NCBI GenBank assembly: GCA_963841565.1
Contig: CAWJCY010000013.1
Span: forward strand, 56,589 to 120,588
Origin: an uncultured Nitrososphaerales archaeon
GTDB taxonomy: Archaea; Thermoproteota; Nitrososphaeria; Nitrososphaerales; Nitrososphaeraceae
Direction of reading: 5' to 3'
DNA length: 64,000 bases
Under the pieces are notes generated by a model. It was not told the DNA's origin and did no database searches. It was given only the letters and a program-made list of their open reading frames with translations. This document shows, piece after piece, positions 6,056 through 48,494 of the stretch. Both the position numbers and the translations under genes were made by a program. Each line of letters begins with the position of its first letter. The stretch's first letter is position 1.

Positions 6056-7216
6056 TTGGTAATATTGGTAAACCTGGGACTGTTTTTCGTTATTGTTGCG
6101 AGTATTGTGACCTCATTTATGTCGTACTCGACAAGTCAATTTCAAAATTCTCATTTTTCCACGGAAGCTTTGTCAGTAAACCAAGCTCTGGCACAACCAG
6201 ATGGAGACGGTTCGTCCGAGCCCACTGACTTGGGAGAAGCTGACAATCAGCAGACTGAAAATGAGAATGGTCCTGAACCTCCAGGCGATTCAGGTGGGTC
6301 CCCTTCAGAGGATCTGGTCGTTCCACCTAGCGACGGGTGCCCTACAGATTTTGTATTGGACCCAACGACAGGGGAGTGCGATTCGACTTTAGGTCCTTGC
6401 CCAGAAGGCGAGACCAGGGGGCAGGCTGGATTTTGTGCAGTAATGCCTGAAAATTGCCCTCCTGGTATGTATATCAATGAGGATCCTCTTTGCGAGCCCT
6501 GCCCAACTGTAGGTGATGTTCCCAGCGAGTGTACTGCTCCAGAACCAGAGCCAGAACCAGAGCCAGTAACGCAACCAGAACCAGAGCCAGAACCAGAGTC
6601 AGTAACGCAACCAGAACCAGAGCCAGAACCAGAGTCAGTAACGCAACCAGAGCCTCTGCCCAATCTAAATAACACTACAAATCCTGGTAATGCGTCTATC
6701 ATTACTATTAACAATGCTATAGCACAAGCATTTTCTAGTACGACTTATAACACCAATGTTCTACAACAATTGGCACAGAACACCCTCCTTGTGGGTGAGG
6801 AAACAATCCCTCTGCAAGGTATGATTAAGGCAAATGATTCAAGACTACTTTCTACATTTGATCCGTTTAGACTAATAGGTGGTAGCGCAATAGTTTACCT
6901 TCCGACTAGCAATCTTTCTTCCTCATCCTCATCTTTTCCTACCAGTACTTCATTTGTAACGACTCCTAGTAACCTTCAGCTAATAGCATTCGATGATGAT
7001 ACTCAGCAGTATGTTACTCTCCCATCCATGAAGATGTCCATCCTGGAAAACTCTTATAAGACCGTTCTAGGAGCGGCGTTTCAAGGTACTAATCCATTTA
7101 CCGGAGAGCAAGTTACTGTAGACAATATCAAAGCACTATTTTTGCTTAATGAATCTAATCAAACAATCTCCCTTGGATATGGTAGTAGCGTTGCTCTGCT
7201 GACGATAGTAAGGTAA
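6056..7216 (+). CDS. Secreted/surface protein with Cys-rich domain and Pro-Glu linker
   Basis: Hydrophobic N-terminus, ALA-Q cleavage-like site, 8 Cys in CP-rich repeats, (PE)n repeats; BRE/TATA GAAAGTTTTTATAAG at 6030-6044 suggests the start may be TTG 6065. Confidence 0.8.
   Translation: MVILVNLGLFFVIVASIVTSFMSYSTSQFQNSHFSTEALSVNQALAQPDGDGSSEPTDLGEADNQQTENENGPEPPGDSGGSPSEDLVVPPSDGCPTDFVLDPTTGECDSTLGPCPEGETRGQAGFCAVMPENCPPGMYINEDPLCEPCPTVGDVPSECTAPEPEPEPEPVTQPEPEPEPESVTQPEPEPEPESVTQPEPLPNLNNTTNPGNASIITINNAIAQAFSSTTYNTNVLQQLAQNTLLVGEETIPLQGMIKANDSRLLSTFDPFRLIGGSAIVYLPTSNLSSSSSSFPTSTSFVTTPSNLQLIAFDDDTQQYVTLPSMKMSILENSYKTVLGAAFQGTNPFTGEQVTVDNIKALFLLNESNQTISLGYGSSVALLTIVR
6539..6646 (+). repeat. 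3 x 36-bp in-frame tandem repeat encoding PEPEPEPE(P/S)VTQ
   Basis: ccagaaccagagccagaaccagag(c/t)cagtaacgcaa x3 read directly. Confidence 0.95.
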
Positions 7217-35682: not shown

Positions 35683-36561
35683 ATGGAACTAGAAAGGAAA
35701 CGAAGTATTCTATCTATAGCAGGAAGCGGGCTAGCATTGCTAACTTTATTGACTTTGAGTAGTGTGACGATGAGCGTTATGTCAGCAACAGCACAGCAAC
35801 AAGAGCAAGGTAGCATGACCACAGGAGCTGATGAATTGTCATTTACTTCACTCTCTGAGCAACAGGCAGTAGCTTCACAGACACAGGAACCATCAACTAA
35901 CGCAGCATGTGGACAAGTCGTAAGCGGAGTAGTAAATCTAACTGCAAATCTTAACTGCAGTGGAGATGGTATCATAGTAGGTGATCCAAACACAGTAATT
36001 AACATGAATGGATTCTCAATCACAGGACCTGGACAGGACAGCTCTAAAGTTGGAATTATGGTACCAAATGTTGATAATGTAGTAGTAAATGGACCTGGTT
36101 CAATAAGCAACTTCCAAGCAGGAGTACTTCTTACTGGAGCAACTGGATTTGCGATTAATTCTGTCATACTATCTAACAACCAGATAGGTACATTTATGAC
36201 AGGAGCTGAAAATGCACAAGTACAACAAAACATCATACAAGGTAATAGTATAGGTGTAGCATCTCACTCAAGTACAGGTGCTGCTATAGACTCAAACCTT
36301 ATGAATGGAAACTTGCTAGCAGGAATAACATTTGTCAACTCACAACAGTCAAGTATAGCAATGAACAATGTAGTTGGAAGTCAGAATGGAGTATTTCTTG
36401 ATGGACAGAGCATACAGAATACAATATCAGCCAATAACGTACTTGAGAATGTAATTGACCTTAACAATGCAAACGGACTACCAATAAACATCAATGCAAA
36501 TCAGTATGTAGACAACAGCTGTGAGACAAGTAATCCAAGTGGTCTGTGTATAGGAAGGTAG
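35683..36561 (+). CDS. Secreted right-handed parallel beta-helix protein (NosD/pectin-lyase-like)
   Basis: Signal peptide; CG...LTANLNCSGDGI; Asn-ladder repeats. Confidence 0.88.
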   Translation: MELERKRSILSIAGSGLALLTLLTLSSVTMSVMSATAQQQEQGSMTTGADELSFTSLSEQQAVASQTQEPSTNAACGQVVSGVVNLTANLNCSGDGIIVGDPNTVINMNGFSITGPGQDSSKVGIMVPNVDNVVVNGPGSISNFQAGVLLTGATGFAINSVILSNNQIGTFMTGAENAQVQQNIIQGNSIGVASHSSTGAAIDSNLMNGNLLAGITFVNSQQSSIAMNNVVGSQNGVFLDGQSIQNTISANNVLENVIDLNNANGLPININANQYVDNSCETSNPSGLCIGR

Positions 36562-37078
36562 TAAAGTACAGGAGAGCAAAGAGCCTCCACTTCTTTAATT
36601 TTTTATCAACTCGATAAGAACTGATGTTAAAAAAGATTAGTGATAGAAGAGAATCTGACCAATCATCATTGGATTAAATAATTCACTTAGAACATATTTG
36701 AAAATAATCATTGGGTAAAAGGGTACTAAGGATCAAATAATCTTCTGCTTTTAATTGTAACTTTTGTTTTGTTGTCATTGTCCAAAGGTGAATGTTTGAA
36801 AACGAAATCTGCTTTTTGAACGAAGTGAGTGATATGAATTTGATCTTACGACTGACATGTTTTACCCCTCAAAAACGTAACGGTATGAGAGCAAATAGTT
36901 GAGCGTCATCAAGGAACCCTCATCTCGTCAGGTAGTAAATAGTGCAAAGCTAAAAGGACGTAGAAAAGAGAAAGTACTATAAATAATGCTCAAATTGAAG
37001 CAAGAATACAATTTTTGATGACCAGGTAGAGTTCAAATTTGATTAATAGATGAATATTTTTTCCCGAAGTCGTAAGCC

Positions 37079-38393
37079 CTAGTTACACAAGATGCTAGGA
37101 GCTGTAACAACCATACCATACTTCTCATCAACAAGTCGGGCTAGCTTTTGTGGAAAGTTTTGTTTATGCCGCGAATTCGAGTTGTGTGAGTAGCTTAATC
37201 CATTTAGCATCATTTCGAAGCTGCCAACAATGATTAGCTTTTCCTTGGAACGAGAAATCGCTACGTTCAGGTCTTGTAGCGAACCAAGTGCGCCGACCAA
37301 TCTTTCTGGATTGTTTCGGACTAAGGAGAAAATTACAATATCTGCTTGTGTGCCCAGCGCACCAGTCGTTGTCAAGACTCTAGTCTCAATGTCAAGATGC
37401 TGAAGATATTTTGATATCGTCCGTCTTTGTTCTGTATATCGTGTCACTATAGAGATCGACTTTGAGGGAGCTACTCTTTTGATTTCACAACAGATCCGAA
37501 CACAGGCTTTCGCTTCTACTTCATTATACCATGAGCTAGGTCCTCCCATCTCTTCGTTGCCATTCAGATTAACCCAAGTAATAACTTCTTCTGGATTAAG
37601 AATTTCCTTATAATTCTTATCAATAGCATATTCCGCTCCAAACCTCCTACTTGCTATTTCAGGGGCCGAATTCAAACCACCATAATCAGCAAATTCATCC
37701 ACTAACATTGCTAGCCTATCAGGGAGTCGATGGGTAGTAAAGAGTGTGTCATACTTCGCACATTTAAGTACCCATTCCATTGCACTAAGATCATAGTCTG
37801 CTAGCCCTATAGGTCTTGATTGTTTGGGATCGCCCACAACAGTAGCTATGATTCCACACTTAGATGCAAGTTCGATTATATTGTTGGTTTCATAAGAAAT
37901 ATTTTCCTTCATAAGATGAATACCTAACTGATTGATTCCAAGAGCAAAAGGAGACAAAAGATGTTCCAGTCTTTCAATACCTGCTTCATCAATGATCATA
38001 TTTTCAAATTTTATCGAGGTGGACAGTCGTTTGAGCGATTGGGTTGTGCAAATCACGATTTTTTTCGCTCTGACGAATTCAATGTTATTGCTAAAAGGTA
38101 TGGGGAGTCTAGGATCAGCTCCAGGCGCGTATCCACTTCTGACGCATAAGAATTTTGATCCTTCAGGACCTAAAACTATACTCAATTCCCTTGCGAATTC
38201 GTTGGCTGCCGAATTGGTAAAGGCTACCAAGAGCATATTCTTGGCATATCCTTCGCAAATCATTTTAACTGCAAGAAAGTCTACCCGTAGTCGTCTTTCC
38301 ACATCCTGCTGGTCCGATTACGCCCGCCACTCCTCCTGATTTGACACGCCAGTTCAATATTCTAGATTGATCTGGATTGAGTTTTATCGTCAT
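37079..38393 (-). CDS. UPF1/Dna2-like SF1 helicase; +1 frameshift at about 38280 just after Walker A
   Basis: ATG 38393 overlaps the upstream stop (ATGA) and reads MTIKLNPDQ...GPAGCGKTT; downstream frame has AFTNSAANE, IIDEAG, VVGDPKQSRP, NEVEA, LNVAISRSKEKLIIVG. Confidence 0.85.
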
Positions 38394-39793
38394 ACCAAAA
38401 GCTCCGGCGGAATAAGCATCTCAGCGGCTAATTTGTGAAATTGATGAATAGGTCGAAGCATGCTTCGGGTAAGGTTGAGCTCATCCCTAAGTAGGATTAA
38501 AGGAAAATGAAATAGTTGCCTCTTAGCCCTTTGTACGGCGATCTTAGATCTAAAGCTAAGTGTGATTTTACTATTCCTGACCTCCATCACGCTAGCCTGC
38601 TCATTGATACAAGAAAGAAGTGACTTACTTGGTTCCATTCCTATTATTCTTACAATCCTACGTGGCTCAAGCGGAATGTTATCGTCAGTCCTCGAAAGTA
38701 TAACTTTTTCATCAATATTAAAATCATAAGAGTACCCTCTAGATAGTATGCCGATTTTCTCCAGCCTACGTAAGGCTTCTTCCTCTCCATGCTTGCTTAT
38801 CTGCGTATAAACCACATGTTTGTGTAGGTGTGTTTCTGCTCTCTCCTTCAGGATCGCATAGCGTTTAGCAAAAAATTGCTTTGTCACTTTTTCATACTGA
38901 GCAGGTAACTTGCCTTCATACGCTAATCTAGCATCGCGTTGGTAGAAAAGACATTCTTTACTCCCCTCTAGGCCTTTATCGCAGACAGGACAGAATTTTG
39001 GTCTCTGAACGCGAACCCTTTCCCCACAAAGGACCATGTGAGCAAATTGTCTATTGGTCTTAATTCTTTCTACTTCCTTCACGATTGTTTCTGTTTTAGG
39101 GAAGTACACCCCACTGTTGTGTACTATGCATGAAAAATTGTGCCCACTCCAATCGTCTTCGCTGCGACGGTATCTAAAATTTGCAAGTAGAGTATTGGCA
39201 ATGAGTTGCCATTTCTCTCGGCCACTTACAGTATTGCTAAGTTCGTAACTTTTCCAATCTAGCAAACCATATCCACTAGAATACTCTAAAAGTGCGTCGA
39301 TCCTACCTTCGTGATGGTCCTTGATATTTGTAATTGTAACTTCTGTTAGGACTCTTGAAGGTCTTTCATGATTCTTCATCAACCTCCGGGTCATTCCTAC
39401 GACAAGACCATTGTAGATATCATTGACTTGGAGCTCGAAATCGTCTTGGACAAATCTATTTTCTTGATGTGCGCCTTCTATGATATCTTTGATTACAGTA
39501 TTTACTATTTCGGATGATTCATTTACTATTTTCTTGGCAATTTGTTCATAATTCTCCAACCCGCTATGCCAATTTTCAAGAATTGGGCCGCTCATACACA
39601 AGCTCATTATGTCATGAACAGTATTGGCGACTAGGTAATCTTTATCACTCCTAGTCGCTCCAAATGGGTAATCAAGTTTGAAAAGATTTTGGCAAACACA
39701 TGCGGTGGCAATTTCTGAAGACTGTACAAGATGGGTTTGGCATCTTCTCAAATAGTCATAAGTTCTTCTAACGTCAATAATATCACTATTCAT
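38390..39793 (-). CDS. Cas4/Dna2/AddB-like Fe-S PD-(D/E)XK nuclease with C-terminal barrel/stalk-like extension
   Basis: SSEIATACVC, TVHDI, E...GRID...LDWKS, WQL, CPVC-x9-C. Confidence 0.8.
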   Translation of the reverse strand: MNSDIIDVRRTYDYLRRCQTHLVQSSEIATACVCQNLFKLDYPFGATRSDKDYLVANTVHDIMSLCMSGPILENWHSGLENYEQIAKKIVNESSEIVNTVIKDIIEGAHQENRFVQDDFELQVNDIYNGLVVGMTRRLMKNHERPSRVLTEVTITNIKDHHEGRIDALLEYSSGYGLLDWKSYELSNTVSGREKWQLIANTLLANFRYRRSEDDWSGHNFSCIVHNSGVYFPKTETIVKEVERIKTNRQFAHMVLCGERVRVQRPKFCPVCDKGLEGSKECLFYQRDARLAYEGKLPAQYEKVTKQFFAKRYAILKERAETHLHKHVVYTQISKHGEEEALRRLEKIGILSRGYSYDFNIDEKVILSRTDDNIPLEPRRIVRIIGMEPSKSLLSCINEQASVMEVRNSKITLSFRSKIAVQRAKRQLFHFPLILLRDELNLTRSMLRPIHQFHKLAAEMLIPPELLV

Positions 39794-39922
39794 ATTTTTG
39801 TTCCTCCCCTCCCCTCTACATTCATTAAGACTTTAGACGGTCAATGCCTGCATGTAACAGGAGGCGATCGTCCATCTATAGATGCAACAGTTGTCAATAT
39901 TTAAGTGGAAGATACTGTGATC

Positions 39923-39941
39923 GGGAGGGAGGGAGAGGGGG
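39923..39941 (+). other. Canonical G-quadruplex-forming motif
   Basis: GGG-A-GGG-A-GGG-AGA-GGGGG in AT-rich intergenic DNA. Confidence 0.6.
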
Positions 39942-40165
39942 AGTTCAAGTATAGATTAAACAAAATATGCATCAAGATGAATTAACTTCGCATTTGTTCG
40001 CAACAATTACAAGTACGGGAGCTGCTGTTAAGTAGGCCAAGAGCTTCTAATGATTTTTCCTCAAATGCATAATCAACATTAGATTCGGATACAATAACTG
40101 TTGTATACTATGCAACACACTGAAAACTAATTGTAAATATACATGATGAAAGTAAAGTTTTTGAA

Positions 40166-40339
40166 ATGATGGAAATAGAACTGGAATTAACATCTCACTC
40201 TAAAGATGTGACTGAAATCTTAGAAAAGGTATCTCAGTTAGTAAAGAGGTCACAGGAATTAGGATTTGAAATGAAGGAGTTAGAAATCGAATCGGAGTAC
40301 GATAAAAAAGAAAAGGAAGGGGCGGCGGAGAAAGAATAG
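40166..40339 (+). CDS. 57-aa acidic small protein (below the ORF-track cutoff)
   Basis: MMEIELELTSHSKDVTEILEKVSQLVKRSQELGFEMKELEIESEYDKKEKEGAAEKE; beta-alpha-beta-like amphipathic pattern; TAAATATA element about 30 nt upstream. Confidence 0.65.
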   Translation: MMEIELELTSHSKDVTEILEKVSQLVKRSQELGFEMKELEIESEYDKKEKEGAAEKE

Positions 40340-40346
40340 TCAGACC

Positions 40347-40383
40347 TTCACCTCACTCTCTAACTTTGAGATTTAGAGGTGAA
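40347..40383 (+). terminator. Stem-loop after the small ORF
   Basis: TTCACCTC...GAGGTGAA 8-bp IR with inner TCTC/GAGA. Confidence 0.4.
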
Positions 40384-40665
40384 CTGGCCAAAAGGTCAGT
40401 CGCCGAAGATTTTATTCATTTAAATCAGTTTATCTGTTCCACTTCCTAACTAATGTACCACTGCAACATTATAATATAACCGAGAATAGTTTTGCAACCA
40501 GTAACATTTAGGAGATGAGGCAACTGTCAAATTACTTGCTTATATGGTGGGTAACAAGTGCTGATGAGACAATAATGTGCTTAAGAGATATACATTTGTC
40601 TCAAAAAAGCGAACCTGGGTAAATGAACAATAAGTATAATCTTTTTCAGAAGAGTTGTCCAATAT

Positions 40666-41628
40666 CTAAATAAGTCCAGTTTGGTCATGATATCCTTCTA
40701 TCTGAATAGTGGCATGGGTTATTCTAAAATTCTTCTCAAGCAATGAATTTATTTCTTGTAGCACCTTCAAGGACTTACTTGGATCTATAACTACGACATG
40801 AGCAGATAATGCGTTTAGACCTGAGGTAATGGTCCAGATGTGCAACTCAAAGACACCAGTTACACCTTTAATCTGAAGGATTGCATTCTTGACAGCTTCA
40901 TGTGATATGTTGGCCGGTACACCCTCCATGAGAATATGAAGTGATTTGTTAAGTAGCCTCCAAGTCCTTGGGAAGATGAACAAGGCAAGAACGATGCTTA
41001 CTATGGGGTCGGCCAAATAAAAGCCGGTTAAATATATGACAATTCCCGCAATGATAATACCAACTGATCCGAGTGTATCGCTAAGGACTTCAAGATATGC
41101 TCCCTGCATATTCAGGTCGACATCTTTTTTCTCGTTTTCGGAATGATCCTTATTCAAGTCGATTGTATGCTCATCTCTTTCGACTGAATTGAGAGGGATA
41201 TTGTGCGAGTGACCCTTGAGAAGCAGTATCCCTACGACATTCACGACAAGTCCAATGCCCCCAACTACTATCATCGGTAGCACATCGATTTGATGAGGTT
41301 CTATTATTCGCCAATACGCTTCATAGAGAATGTAAAAGGAAATCAATATCAATACGACACCATTGGCTAGTGCGGCAAGTATCTCCAATCTATAAAATCC
41401 AAATGTTCTTTGGGGGGTGGGAGGCTTGCGGGAATAAGAAATTGCGAAGAGGGCCAGGGCCACCCCCCCAACATCTGCTACCATATGACCGGCGTCAGCA
41501 AGTAAAGCTAAGCTACCCGTTATGATGCCAGAAACCACCTCTACGGCGAGAAACCCAGTAACGATATAGAATACGATCCTGAGCTTTGTTATCCGATGTT
41601 TCGTTATTTCATTTCTAGTTGTGGACAA
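40666..41628 (-). CDS. czcD: Cation diffusion facilitator (Zn/Co/Cd exporter)
   Basis: SLALLADAGHM, TFGFYRLEILAAL, His-containing loop, ELHIWTITSG, HATIQIE. Confidence 0.92.
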   Translation of the reverse strand: MSTTRNEITKHRITKLRIVFYIVTGFLAVEVVSGIITGSLALLADAGHMVADVGGVALALFAISYSRKPPTPQRTFGFYRLEILAALANGVVLILISFYILYEAYWRIIEPHQIDVLPMIVVGGIGLVVNVVGILLLKGHSHNIPLNSVERDEHTIDLNKDHSENEKKDVDLNMQGAYLEVLSDTLGSVGIIIAGIVIYLTGFYLADPIVSIVLALFIFPRTWRLLNKSLHILMEGVPANISHEAVKNAILQIKGVTGVFELHIWTITSGLNALSAHVVVIDPSKSLKVLQEINSLLEKNFRITHATIQIEGYHDQTGLI

Positions 41629-41683
41629 TTATTTTTCCTTCAGTCCACATACAGTCTATTATTGCCTATTATATTGATATTCT

Positions 41684-41699
41684 CAATACATATGTATTG
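41684..41699. promoter_or_regulatory. Perfect 16-bp palindrome, candidate metal-regulator operator
   Basis: CAATACATATGTATTG about 55-70 bp upstream of czcD, next to a TATA-like element. Confidence 0.5.
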
Positions 41700-42059
41700 G
41701 AAGGTCCACTCGGAAGTTTAAACCTCTATAATGTAATAGGTTGGGAGGTTTGGGAGTAATGGAAAATCCTAGCTGTCTTAAGTATTTAGGCTACTATACC
41801 ATACGAATGTTAGATCATTTAGAGACAGAGTAATGGTCACCCCACGGATAAGATTACTAGTATACGGTAACGAGGATTGTCGTGGGAATGGCACCTATTC
41901 GAGACCCATTTCTCTTCTCACCATTTGATTTCGAATAACCTTGGTTAATGCACTCCACTGCATTCGATTTAAACAATGGCATTGACAACCAATCAGTTAT
42001 TGCGTTCGTCCGCGAAGTTGATTCCTTAAATATTGCTTATGGCATTTAGAAAACCAACT

Positions 42060-42507
42060 ATGAAAAACAATGAATTCATCCTGGCTGGAGTACTGGCAAC
42101 AGTATTACTTTTCTCGACAACTGCTATGCCGCAAGGCATTTGGATTTCTTCAGATCCTGTAAACGCCCAAATGGATAGCGGTAATCAGACAGCAGTTATA
42201 GACCAGTTACTTTCAAACCTAAGCCAAGCAAAGGAAGGCAGCAGGAAGTGGAAACTCTACGGCGGTAACCATGCAATTGACCGCTATAATAGGAGAGCTC
42301 TCTGATATACTTGGTAAGGTGACAACCGATGAAAACGGCGAGAACTTGGACGAACATACGCACGTATTCGTACACAAAGGACATACTCATACCGTAACAC
42401 ACAAGCATCCTCATCATTCTGACCATCATCACCATGATAATGGAGACTGGTTCGAAAAACATCACATTTTCAATCCAAATGATTGCAAACCAGGCCTTAT
42501 GTGTTAA
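42060..42507 (+). CDS. Secreted His-rich putative metal-binding protein; +1 frameshift at about 42238
   Basis: Signal peptide ending VNA-Q; removing one G gives KEAAGSGNSTAVTMQLT...; C-terminus HTHVFVHKGHTHTVTHKHPHHSDHHHHD...CKPGLMC. Confidence 0.75.
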
Positions 42508-46259: not shown

Positions 46260-48494
46260 TCAGCTCATGGATTTGAGAGGTAGTGTAAAACAAAATGTAG
46301 CACCCTGTTCATTGTCGTTGTTATAGGCCCAAATTTTGCCACCGTGTGCCTCAACAAGGCTTTTTGACACGTAAAGACCAAGTCCGGTTCCACCATCAGA
46401 GGTAGTAACAAATTTAGTAAATAGTTTTTTATTGATGCTCCTATCAATACCAATCCCTCTATCCTTTACCATTATGACAATTTCTTCGGAAGTATTCTCA
46501 TCTTTCTCCATAGAAACTTCAATTGGGAGAACTATTTTATTATCTTGAATCATTCGTTGATTTGAAGAATTCAAGGCATTATTTAAAAGGTTTGACAAGA
46601 CTTGAATAATCCTGTCCTTGTCCACTTCGATTAAAAATAGGCCTGGTTCTAAAGGTGCCTTGTAAAGTACTTGGCAAAAGAGATCTCTAACTTTTTTGTT
46701 GTTGTCGTTGTTGCTTGTGCTGTCATTAACGTTCTTACCGCCTTCTCCAAAGCTCTTCCTCTCTATAGATGTTTGGTATTCTGTTACTAATGATGATATC
46801 AGACTGTCTAAATTGACCATCTCCTTGTCTAACTTTAGTATTTTGCCTTCAATTTTGGTGACATCCAGTATATTGTTAGTAAGGCGATGCAATCTCTCTG
46901 CATTTCTTGCAATTATTATTAAATACTCATTAAGATCCTGGTCCTTGTTACTTTTTAGTACAACTTTGGATAATCCTAATATTGGTTGAATGGGTGTCCG
47001 CAGCTCATGAGCTGCAGTGTTAATAAATTCTCGCTGTGCGATATCACGCAACCTTAATTCATCATTTAGCCCTTCAAGGCGATCATAGAGTTCACTCTGT
47101 CTCCAAAGTGTTTCAAATATAGAAGCATAGGAGAGAACGGTGGACTTACTATTGGAATAAGTACTAATACCTATCGCATCAACTGTTCGGTCCTTTGTAT
47201 CATCATTGAGCTCTACTGTCAGAGAGTATTTCTTATCCACAAGCAGTAGAGAGATTCTAGTTTGCAAGTTTTCTTTAAGATGTCTCACCTTGATCTGATT
47301 TTGATATTGAAAAGTACTTAAATCATATCTCTTTGCAAAACTCAGAATCTTTTTGTTACTAGGACTCAAGATTCTTATAATCACACCATTGTCGGTTGCA
47401 GCCTGCTCCAACAACTTGAAGGAGCCAGCCCTAACCTGACGTAAAAATGCGTTACTAGTGGCACAAACTATCATTATTTCACTTCTGGAATTCTTTATAA
47501 GCTCATAAGTAAGTTTTTGAACTTCATAAGGGTCTTTGATAGTTTCAATAAACTCTTCTTCCGTCCCCCTTTGTATCTGGTCAATCCTTCGTTCAGCAGG
47601 TAAGGCTTTGCCCCACAGAGTCTCAAAAAAGTACTGCTGTTGTTCCACGAATGCTCTGATATTGCTTCGAATAAGCTGTGCCGGAGCCTGACCTACTCCT
47701 GCCGACGAGCCTGCGCCATAGCTTTTACCATCGATTATGCCAAAGTTCCCTTTCACTTTTTCGAGATGCCGTAGCTCACATATTTTAAGAAGTTTTTCAC
47801 AATATTTCATATTCTCTTTCGTTATTTCCGTAATGAATCTCAACCTGATGCCCCTCCTAGACAGTTCTGCATAATCAGACCAGATAGGAGAGTTCACAAA
47901 GAGTGACGGTCCGGTAAAATCAGTACAACTGTCAAATCTTTCTTGAACATGGCTGAGATCCCGTAGAAAATGCTTAATGATATTCTCTTGCCCATAGAGA
48001 ATCTCCGTCTTTTCCACCGGAAGATTTCTCTCTAGCTGCACCATTCTAATCTCTGCAGGTATGGCCGCATTCCAGAGAAACTCGAAGAGGAATTGATGAG
48101 CTTCAACTATTGCAATTGTGTCCGTTGATATGCCATAGGTCTCAGCCACACTTGAGGAAGCATATCCAAGATATTGTTTACCGTCAGCTAAGACAAAATT
48201 GGATCTGATGCTATCAAGATGCCGGATTTCTGCACTTGGAATGATACTATTAATCTCTGCCGCATTTTCATTGGTGATCTCTGTCAGGATTCTGATCCTG
48301 ACGTTCCTTTCTGCTTTTAATTTAAAGAGTCCCTTTTTCACTTCACTCTTCGCAAGATGCAATGATATTTCCTGATGATCAAGACAGGCATCAAATTTGT
48401 CTACAACCCAAGCTAGTGTTTCACCCATTTTCTTACCCATCGATTCATTGCTATGAAACGCGTTAGTAGCATCCGGCGGTTGAGCGGTTTTCAT
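46260..48494 (-). CDS. Cytoplasmic sensor histidine kinase with three repeated N-terminal sensor domains
   Basis: AAHELRTP, NLLNNA, DRGIG, GTGLGL; repeated R.LTEIT.EN / E.RHL / FE.LW motifs. Confidence 0.92.
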   Translation of the reverse strand: MKTAQPPDATNAFHSNESMGKKMGETLAWVVDKFDACLDHQEISLHLAKSEVKKGLFKLKAERNVRIRILTEITNENAAEINSIIPSAEIRHLDSIRSNFVLADGKQYLGYASSSVAETYGISTDTIAIVEAHQFLFEFLWNAAIPAEIRMVQLERNLPVEKTEILYGQENIIKHFLRDLSHVQERFDSCTDFTGPSLFVNSPIWSDYAELSRRGIRLRFITEITKENMKYCEKLLKICELRHLEKVKGNFGIIDGKSYGAGSSAGVGQAPAQLIRSNIRAFVEQQQYFFETLWGKALPAERRIDQIQRGTEEEFIETIKDPYEVQKLTYELIKNSRSEIMIVCATSNAFLRQVRAGSFKLLEQAATDNGVIIRILSPSNKKILSFAKRYDLSTFQYQNQIKVRHLKENLQTRISLLLVDKKYSLTVELNDDTKDRTVDAIGISTYSNSKSTVLSYASIFETLWRQSELYDRLEGLNDELRLRDIAQREFINTAAHELRTPIQPILGLSKVVLKSNKDQDLNEYLIIIARNAERLHRLTNNILDVTKIEGKILKLDKEMVNLDSLISSLVTEYQTSIERKSFGEGGKNVNDSTSNNDNNKKVRDLFCQVLYKAPLEPGLFLIEVDKDRIIQVLSNLLNNALNSSNQRMIQDNKIVLPIEVSMEKDENTSEEIVIMVKDRGIGIDRSINKKLFTKFVTTSDGGTGLGLYVSKSLVEAHGGKIWAYNNDNEQGATFCFTLPLKSMS

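Follow-up and report, generated by a model that had tools for sequence, protein, structure and literature searches.

The stretch of DNA analysed here (hereafter the window; 64 kb of contig CAWJCY010000013.1, assembly GCA_963841565.1, from an uncultured Nitrososphaerales archaeon) carries on its minus strand a pair of overlapping genes, referred to as gene 1 and gene 2, which probably encode the two subunits of a Dna2-like nuclease-helicase. Gene 1 is an uninterrupted open reading frame (ORF) of 467 amino acids (aa) with a predicted nuclease domain and a C-terminal accessory module, and gene 2, the ATG of which overlaps the stop codon of gene 1, encodes a helicase motor of superfamily 1B (SF1B), the frame of which is interrupted in this assembly. 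The features of the locus are as follows.

38390..39793, minus strand: gene 1, uninterrupted ORF of 467 aa
38903..39793, minus strand: gene 1 residues 1-297, predicted PD-(D/E)XK (RecB/Cas4-type) nuclease domain with 1+3 cysteines, from the ORF, invariant residues and fold matches
38393..38902, minus strand: gene 1 residues 298-467, predicted stalk helices and beta-barrel (a 1B-like module of Upf1-type helicases), from the predicted structure, fold matches and predicted interface
38390..38393, minus strand: ATGA, in which the gene 1 stop TGA (38392-38390) overlaps the gene 2 ATG (38393-38391), within ...TTGGTATGACGATAAAA...
38265..38393, minus strand: 5' piece of gene 2, 42 codons with LNPDQ and the Walker A motif, ending at a premature stop (38267-38265), from frame reading and a match to AAA_30 (E 1.5e-4)
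38280..38280, minus strand: single extra base breaking the helicase frame, from DNA alignment with same-genus loci and public contigs
37079..38279, minus strand: remainder of gene 2, SF1B (Upf1/Dna2-type) RecA1-RecA2 motor with motifs Ia-VI, from a match to AAA_12 (E 2.6e-26)

Motifs and predicted fold of gene 1

The gene 1 product contains two N-terminal cysteines in ATACVCQ (C32 and C34), followed by H60, E151, HEGRIDA (D166), LDWK (D179 and K181), and a cysteine triplet in FCPVCDKGLEGSKEC (C268, C271, and C281; CxxC-x9-C). Every motif listed for this protein in an initial annotation, made from the letters of the window, is therefore present, and the key residues are invariant: in an alignment of 80 homologues spanning 90-41% identity, C34, H60, E151, G163, D166, W180, K181, C268, C271, and C281 are fully conserved, and the identical ten residues are still invariant in a 21-sequence alignment with members down to 24% identity. 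The position of D179 is occupied by Asp in at least 90% of the 80 sequences and by Glu in some distant members (VEWK, LEWK). We take D166 and D179/W180/K181 to be the catalytic D...(D/E)-x-K motifs of PD-(D/E)XK nucleases. The final cysteine spacing is x9 in the window protein; in distant members, P0246 and P0255 among them, it is x5, the canonical last spacing of Cas4, AddB, and Dna2. Distant relatives also exceed the cut-off of the Cas4-like family PF12705 (22 bits), with 40.6 bits for P0271, 34.4 bits for the copy in locus L065, and 24.7 bits for P0255, and among the matches listed a precomputed PF12705 assignment is carried by 5 of 120 homologues. The family is called "hypothetical protein" in the source annotations. 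Gene 1 is under strong purifying selection, the ratio of nonsynonymous to synonymous substitution rates (dN/dS) being 0.08-0.10 over the seven pairs with unsaturated dS.

An AlphaFold2 model of gene 1 built from the 80-sequence alignment has a mean predicted local distance difference test (pLDDT) value of 84.4 and a predicted template modelling score (pTM) of 0.84; its low-confidence parts are the cysteine-bearing loops 31-33, 40-51, and 274-276. In a Foldseek search with this model, three mouse Dna2 entries ranked first, with E values from 3.1e-11 (5ean_A) to 7.5e-10, followed by AdnA, Cas4, ACE1, Upf1, MGME1, and Ighmbp2. Structural alignments of the model made with VIA-align (rmsd, root-mean-squared deviation) gave the following matches.

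Dna2, 5eax_A: Z 16.4, rmsd 4.6 Å, 388 aligned residues, model 10-460 on chain 36-587
Cas4, 8d3l_J: Z 12.1, rmsd 4.4 Å, 182 aligned residues, model 21-297 on chain 8-212
Ighmbp2, 4b3f: Z 9.1, rmsd 3.1 Å, 136 aligned residues, model 300-456 on chain 3-159
Sen1, 8rao_O: Z 9.0, rmsd 6.2 Å, 137 aligned residues, model 297-455 on chain 1144-1304
AdnA, 9np6_A: Z 11.1, model 18-288

Cas4 chains score Z 10-14 against the model, and Cas4-containing chains at Z 12-14 come behind Dna2 with its Z of 16.4. The last ~170 residues, which the initial annotation had described as a beta-barrel plus stalk, are predicted to form helices (298-347), strands (350-437), and a closing helix (442-460), and it is this part that is superposed on Ighmbp2 and Sen1. 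Judged from the model, the gene 1 product is an iron-staple nuclease, the cysteines of which would bind an iron-sulphur (Fe-S) cluster, joined to a stalk and a 1B-type barrel like those of Upf1-like helicases.

The helicase gene and its interrupted frame

The reading frame opened by the ATG of gene 2 begins MTIKLNPDQ and contains the Walker A motif GPAGCGKTT (in GPAGCGKTTTG) before the premature stop, and the remainder of the helicase lies in an open +1 frame (37079..38317) matching AAA_12 with E 2.6e-26 and 92.8 bits. The ORF track begins at GTG 38302 because the gene 2 frame shifts. The ATGA overlap, LNPDQ, Walker A, and the SF1 motifs were thus read correctly in the initial annotation, but the gene it described from the ATGA start is not a single ORF in the window, the frameshift at 38280 having been overlooked. 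On the minus strand the window reads GGTAG[A]CTTTC around this base, as compared with GGTAG-CTTTC (or GGCAG/GGTAG-T) in relatives. The extra base is missing from all 11 same-genus loci in the DNA alignment (10/10 without L009, which comes from genome G013 and is flagged unpublished). The helicase is one intact ORF in nine of these 11 loci, with its start overlapping or adjoining the end of gene 1, and the same overlap or immediate adjacency of both genes is found in same-genus loci; the intact helicases are ~437 aa long from the ATG (441-447 codons stop-to-stop), and of the two exceptions L005 is interrupted at a different position and L010 runs into the end of its contig.

The frame was also checked on contigs, not raw reads, of four public sequencing runs (X1-X4) from four studies. 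The base is absent in every covering contig (one in X1, one in X2, and two in X4, X3 being without cover there), and the longest of them match the window at >99% identity; should X1 be the sample from which the window itself comes, as is possible, it would not be independent. Four RNA runs contained only 0.05-0.08 of the sampled words. The 399 codons 3' of the shift contain no stop, the window helicase is 95% identical to the intact orthologue P0121 over residues 40-438, and dN/dS of the helicase is 0.05-0.09 against nine orthologues, in a comparison that omitted loci L005, L009, and L010 and the more distant loci. The extra base is therefore probably an assembly error or a very recent, strain-private mutation, and the normal state of the family is two intact genes. 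A programmed +1 frameshift in gene 2 was considered and rejected, the base being absent from 11/11 same-genus loci and from contigs of 3/3 covering runs.

Two further irregularities of sequence were seen in and around the helicase. In L005/L026, of the same genus, the helicase is split by a different frameshift near residue 110, in a genome of few long contigs. Just 3' of the helicase stop in the window, a T-run (37010-37016) lacks one T that the contigs of three runs have; this difference, at 37011, suggests indel errors in the present assembly.

The identity and fold of gene 2 were judged on the same-genus orthologue P0121. It exceeds the cut-off of 27 bits for both AAA_12 (90.8) and AAA_11 (32.5), and also matches AAA_30. 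By sequence its best match among Protein Data Bank (PDB) chains is Upf1/NAM7 (E 3.4e-11), with DNA2 at 4.2e-7, and the Upf1 alignment shows Walker A and the conserved C-terminal (RecA2) helicase motifs. The predicted structure of P0121 gave the following matches.

Ighmbp2, residues 188-644: Z 24.2, 374 aligned residues
Upf1, residues 466-906: Z 23.0
Dna2, residues 622-1056: Z 22.8, 378 aligned residues

The model begins at the equivalent of Ighmbp2 residue 188, the 1B barrel and stalk being found in gene 1 instead. As modelled, gene 2 is a minimal SF1B motor composed of RecA1 and RecA2 with a short helical insert.

Tiling, adjacency and predicted complex

The two products together tile both reference chains, gene 1 covering residues 36-587 of Dna2 and 3-159 of Ighmbp2 and gene 2 continuing at 622-1056 and 188-644, respectively. 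This tiling indicates that the pair is a Dna2-like machine split at the stalk/RecA1 junction, the boundary already proposed in the initial annotation. The two genes also occur together. Of 45 loci from contigs of one genome per species, a set overlapping a separate 22-locus set drawn from the same genomes, 40 have the helicase directly downstream of gene 1; among the five others, the contigs of L034, L051, and L061 end inside gene 1, and L053 and L066 are fragments. The pairing is kept in the most distant loci, L064 and L065, in which both genes are ~27% identical to the query, and apparently decayed pairs are seen in L040, L048, L063, and the frameshifted L026. In every locus examined the two genes are separate, and no fused single-chain form was found among the 142 matches of the gene 1 profile (1.84 billion representatives). 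Full-length matches are 400-490 aa long and the longest has 589 aa; the 142 matches give no sign that the profile reaches beyond its own family.

When window gene 1 was modelled together with the orthologous helicase, all three runs gave a score of 0.76, as compared with 0.00 for the best of three controls; 58 of 80 solved complexes attain this value, as do 2 of 110 mismatched pairs. At least 91% of the contacts are common to the runs, and the pLDDT of the partner is 85. In the predicted interface, the gene 1 stalk (299-317 and 441-460) packs against the helical insert of the helicase (142-180), a segment that is poorly ordered in the monomer model. The modelling supports binding of the two gene products to each other. 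Altogether, we consider it probable (roughly 0.78) that the locus encodes a two-subunit Dna2-like nuclease-helicase, divided between the stalk/barrel and the motor.

Several observations weigh against this assignment. Window gene 1 has no Pfam match at E <=0.1, matches none of the PADLOC families and no PDB chain by sequence at E <=10, and shows a sub-threshold match to RecB (E 0.019), so that its assignment draws on the predicted structure and on relatives. Its identity to Dna2 within the structural alignments is just 12-13%. The P0121 monomer model is of moderate quality (pLDDT 74.8, pTM 0.59), with residues 150-170 below 50. The score of the complex may reflect the likeness of the chains to solved single-chain Dna2 and Upf1-like structures, and the complex was modelled with alignments that we built ourselves and with chains from two genomes of one genus. 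In addition, base 38280 lies outside any homopolymer, which leaves room for a real inactivating mutation.

Distribution, cellular role and relation to known enzymes

Gene 1 is present in 23 of 61 related genomes, all of one family; by group, it was found in 22/36 genomes of that family, in 12/13 of the window's genus, and in 0/24 from 19 other families of the order. In a class-wide sample it occurs in 3/301 genomes (2/39 in the window's family, f1, and 0/261 in other families). Well-sampled genera of the same family without gene 1 gave 0/8, 0/14, 0/7, and 0/6. Overall, the pair was seen in Nitrososphaerales alone. The locus records are named Nitrososphaerales, Nitrososphaeraceae, Nitrososphaera, Nitrosocosmicus, and Ca. 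(Candidatus) Nitrosopolaris, and among the remaining records four are named just Thermoproteota and one Nitrosopumilales. Three records of metagenome-assembled genomes (MAGs) hold two loci each (L047/L057, L034/L051, and L032/L053), one copy sometimes fragmentary, which could be due to paralogy or to mixed strains in a bin.

The neighbours in the window are a bicupin, a NosD-like secreted protein, a CDF efflux pump, an amidase, and a histidine kinase, and the CDF gene (40666-41628) is syntenic with the pair across the genus. The setting consists of ordinary genes of transport and metabolism in an order kept within the genus, and is no defence island. The initial annotation placed the pair among accessory genes lacking cas genes and any CRISPR array, and asked for its patchiness and any defence-island context to be surveyed. 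The patchiness was borne out, no CRISPR-like array was detected in the window, and the 10 neighbours scanned include no cas gene, a search for cas that did not extend to the remainder of the genome. The window shows no GC (guanine-plus-cytosine) anomaly, and positions 36000-42500 match no Rfam family. The 870-bp gap 5' of gene 1 (39794-40665) contains only short ORFs (<=57 aa). A scan for bacterial-type promoters and terminators returned 12 sites as compared with 10.5 expected, the consensus being bacterial and the host archaeal.

A gene for a Csa3-like regulator is a recurrent neighbour of the pair in genera more distant from the window's genus. This divergent gene (~290-315 aa) lies upstream of the pair in 20 of the 45 loci, 18 copies being near full length, for example L049:596-1543 (minus strand) and L065:2772-3641 (minus strand), and its product matches HFX_2341_N (E 3e-35) and, with a winged helix, DUF6293_C, the matches to CARF_Card1 and Csa3_N being weaker. 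It was detected neither in the window by tblastn, the gap 39794-40665 included, nor by a PF19810 search of the window's genome, which is 88% complete. HFX_2341 is described as resembling Csa3a, and its over-expression represses cas genes in Haloferax (PMC11434293).

Several other features were noted at the window and at related loci. A 78-aa ORF extremely rich in histidine (window 42271-42507, plus strand; …HTHVFVHKGHTHTVTHKHPHHSDHHHHDNGD…) lies ~650 bases from the CDF gene and may encode a metal-binding partner. The 744-aa histidine kinase (46260-48494, minus strand) has a sub-threshold PLDc_2 match in its sensor part (E 1.8e-5, 25 bits, cut-off 27). A tandem repeat at window 6539-6651 (period 36, 3.1 copies, 98% matches, CCAGAA/CCAGAG units) probably encodes a Pro-Glu-rich protein repeat. 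Directly 3' of the distant pair in L065, a 129-aa ORF (L065:6694-7083, plus strand) has no Pfam match and is cut by the contig end.

Reasoning from Dna2 and the bacterial enzyme Bad, we expect the two chains to dock through the stalk and a free 5' end of single-stranded DNA to thread through the nuclease, past the barrel, and into the motor. The motor would move 5'-to-3' at the expense of ATP (adenosine triphosphate), and the nuclease would cut the strand in front of the motor. The ATGA overlap would couple the translation of both genes, so that their products would be made in equal amounts.

The reading of the pair as a split Dna2-like machine in the initial annotation is supported, and its observations are partly confirmed. 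As to the cellular role, we lean towards an accessory, regulated enzyme for DNA-end or flap processing in repair, because the chromosomal context is stable, purifying selection is strong, and the vicinity is free of defence genes; an antiviral role is almost equally likely. An essential repair function is opposed by the patchy occurrence of the pair (23/61; 3/301) and its decay in several genomes, and also by NurA, which is found in 52 of the 61 relatives, pair holders and non-holders alike. Since NurA is present irrespective of the pair, the pair is not a replacement for the usual archaeal resection nuclease, and a distribution complementary to NurA, the test applied to a resection role, was rejected. 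It is possible that the same two-subunit machine serves antiviral or anti-plasmid defence instead, as an inducible effector that would load on invader DNA ends and degrade them under Csa3-like, ligand-sensing control. Such an effector fits the patchiness within one family (22/36; class-wide 2/39, other families 0/261), the repeatedly decayed copies (e.g. L063/G027, L040, L053, and fragments in G004), and the link to the Csa3-like sensor upstream in 20/45 loci, which has an HFX_2341_N match, HFX_2341 being a repressor of cas genes in Haloferax; the two loci in some MAG records point the same way. However, PADLOC is blank for gene 1 and returns only partial matches to MkoA, MkoC, and GajB for gene 2, confined to the helicase core (MkoA profile 912-1090 of 1112), and the 10 scanned neighbours of the window are cupin, NosD-like, CDF efflux, amidase, histidine kinase, and similar genes. 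Synteny with the CDF gene is kept throughout the genus, the GC content shows no anomaly, no restriction, methylase, or cas family occurs among the 10 recurrent neighbour clusters scanned, and both genes are under strong purifying selection. Moreover, the regulator is found neither in the window nor in its genome, and HFX_2341 itself is viewed by the authors who described it as a global regulator (PMC11434293).

Two other explanations concern the substrate and the state of the pair. Its action on RNA, as a Upf1-like RNA helicase with a nuclease for RNA surveillance or decay, is very improbable: although the nearest helicase structures include the RNA helicases Ighmbp2, Upf1, Sen1/SETX, and nsp13, and the best PDB sequence match of the helicase is Upf1/NAM7, the matches of the nuclease are all DNA nucleases (Dna2, Cas4, AdnA/AddB, MGME1, RecE, and Exo5), gene 1 as a whole aligns best to Dna2, and the Dna2 helicase core lies within ~1.4 Z of the top match. 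It is also unlikely that the insertion at 38280 has truly inactivated the helicase in this strain, leaving a dead system with gene 1 as an orphan. The position of the base outside a homopolymer and the decay of the pair in other genomes, including the different frameshift in L005/L026, would agree with such a loss. Against it stand the contigs of all three covering runs, at least 99% identical and without the base, the 399 downstream codons without a further stop at a dN/dS of 0.05-0.09, and the difference in homopolymer length at 37011 between this assembly and three runs.

The split Dna2-like pair differs from the known enzymes that it resembles. Eukaryotic Dna2 (mouse; PDB 5EAN, 5EAX, and 5EAW) has the same order of modules, namely an Fe-S PD-(D/E)XK nuclease, the stalk and beta-barrel, and an SF1B RecA1-RecA2 motor, but in one polypeptide instead of two, and identity in structural alignments is only 12-22%. 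Whereas Dna2 is described as essential and ubiquitous in eukaryotes (PMC7430649), the archaeal pair occurs patchily and is dispensable in its lineage. Between the last two cysteines the spacing is x9 in window gene 1 and x5 in distant family members, and the likeness to Dna2 is at the level of the fold, orthology not being implied. Because the modules are not in one polypeptide, we count the pair as a variant, not a member, of the Dna2-like nuclease-helicases. Bad from Geobacillus stearothermophilus is likewise prokaryotic, with an iron-staple nuclease placed before an SF1B motor; its account reports an Fe-S cluster, single-stranded DNA endonuclease activity, 5'-3' translocase and helicase activity, and a sporadic distribution, and mentions similar proteins in Euryarchaea as data not shown (PMC7430649). 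Compared with our two-gene pair by description, not by sequence, Bad is a single monomeric chain.

Cas4 and Cas4-like PF12705 proteins have the nuclease fold and the 1+3 cysteine pattern in common with gene 1, which differs by the extra 170-aa stalk and barrel and by the lack of cas genes (10 neighbours) and of a CRISPR-like array (window). Passages on the helicase links of Cas4-like proteins name UvrD-type helicases of superfamily 1A (fused or in an operon) and YprA-type helicases of superfamily 2, and contain no SF1B/Upf1-type link (PMC5704561). In the Upf1-like SF1B helicases (Ighmbp2, Upf1, and Sen1/SETX), the motor core and motifs correspond to gene 2 and the stalk and 1B barrel to the C-terminal part of gene 1, but barrel and stalk belong to the motor chain and no nuclease is present, whereas here both lie in the separate gene 1. 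Among anti-phage systems, the C-terminal motor of gene 2 matches MkoA of Mokosh (MkoA/MkoC) with E 2.4e-28; with Mokosh and the other helicase systems of PADLOC only the generic helicase core is common, and none of their nuclease partners is found among the scanned neighbours, in which the single PLD-like match, that of the histidine kinase, is sub-threshold. The check for an already described system, as proposed in the initial annotation, found none in PADLOC-DB 2.0 (a library of 2023) with all its components matched. We found no account of a split SF1B/Dna2-like pair from this lineage in the literature searched, supplements (e.g. PMC7430649 Figures S1-S3 and PMC5704561) being outside that search. 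Single-chain Dna2-like enzymes are already known from eukaryotes and, as with Bad, from a few prokaryotes; here such a machine would be built from two overlapping genes that are probably coupled in translation.

Nitrososphaerales are important in soil nitrification, and to our knowledge their DNA repair and antiviral systems have received little experimental study. One conjecture, rather doubtful at present, is that soil ammonia-oxidising archaea have a previously undescribed, lineage-specific module for immunity or genome surveillance with the pair as its effector, in which a Csa3-like CARF/winged-helix sensor would switch on a heterodimeric, Dna2-shaped motor that threads and shreds free invader DNA ends; the window's genus would then have given up the sensor while retaining the effector under different control. 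With its frequent Csa3-like partner, the pair offers a way to test whether ligand sensing and DNA-end processing are linked in archaea. The natural split lets the two halves be purified and mixed, allowing a clean study of how nuclease and motor regulate each other in Dna2-type enzymes, and the pair adds a candidate DNA-end processing or defence enzyme to the Nitrososphaerales.

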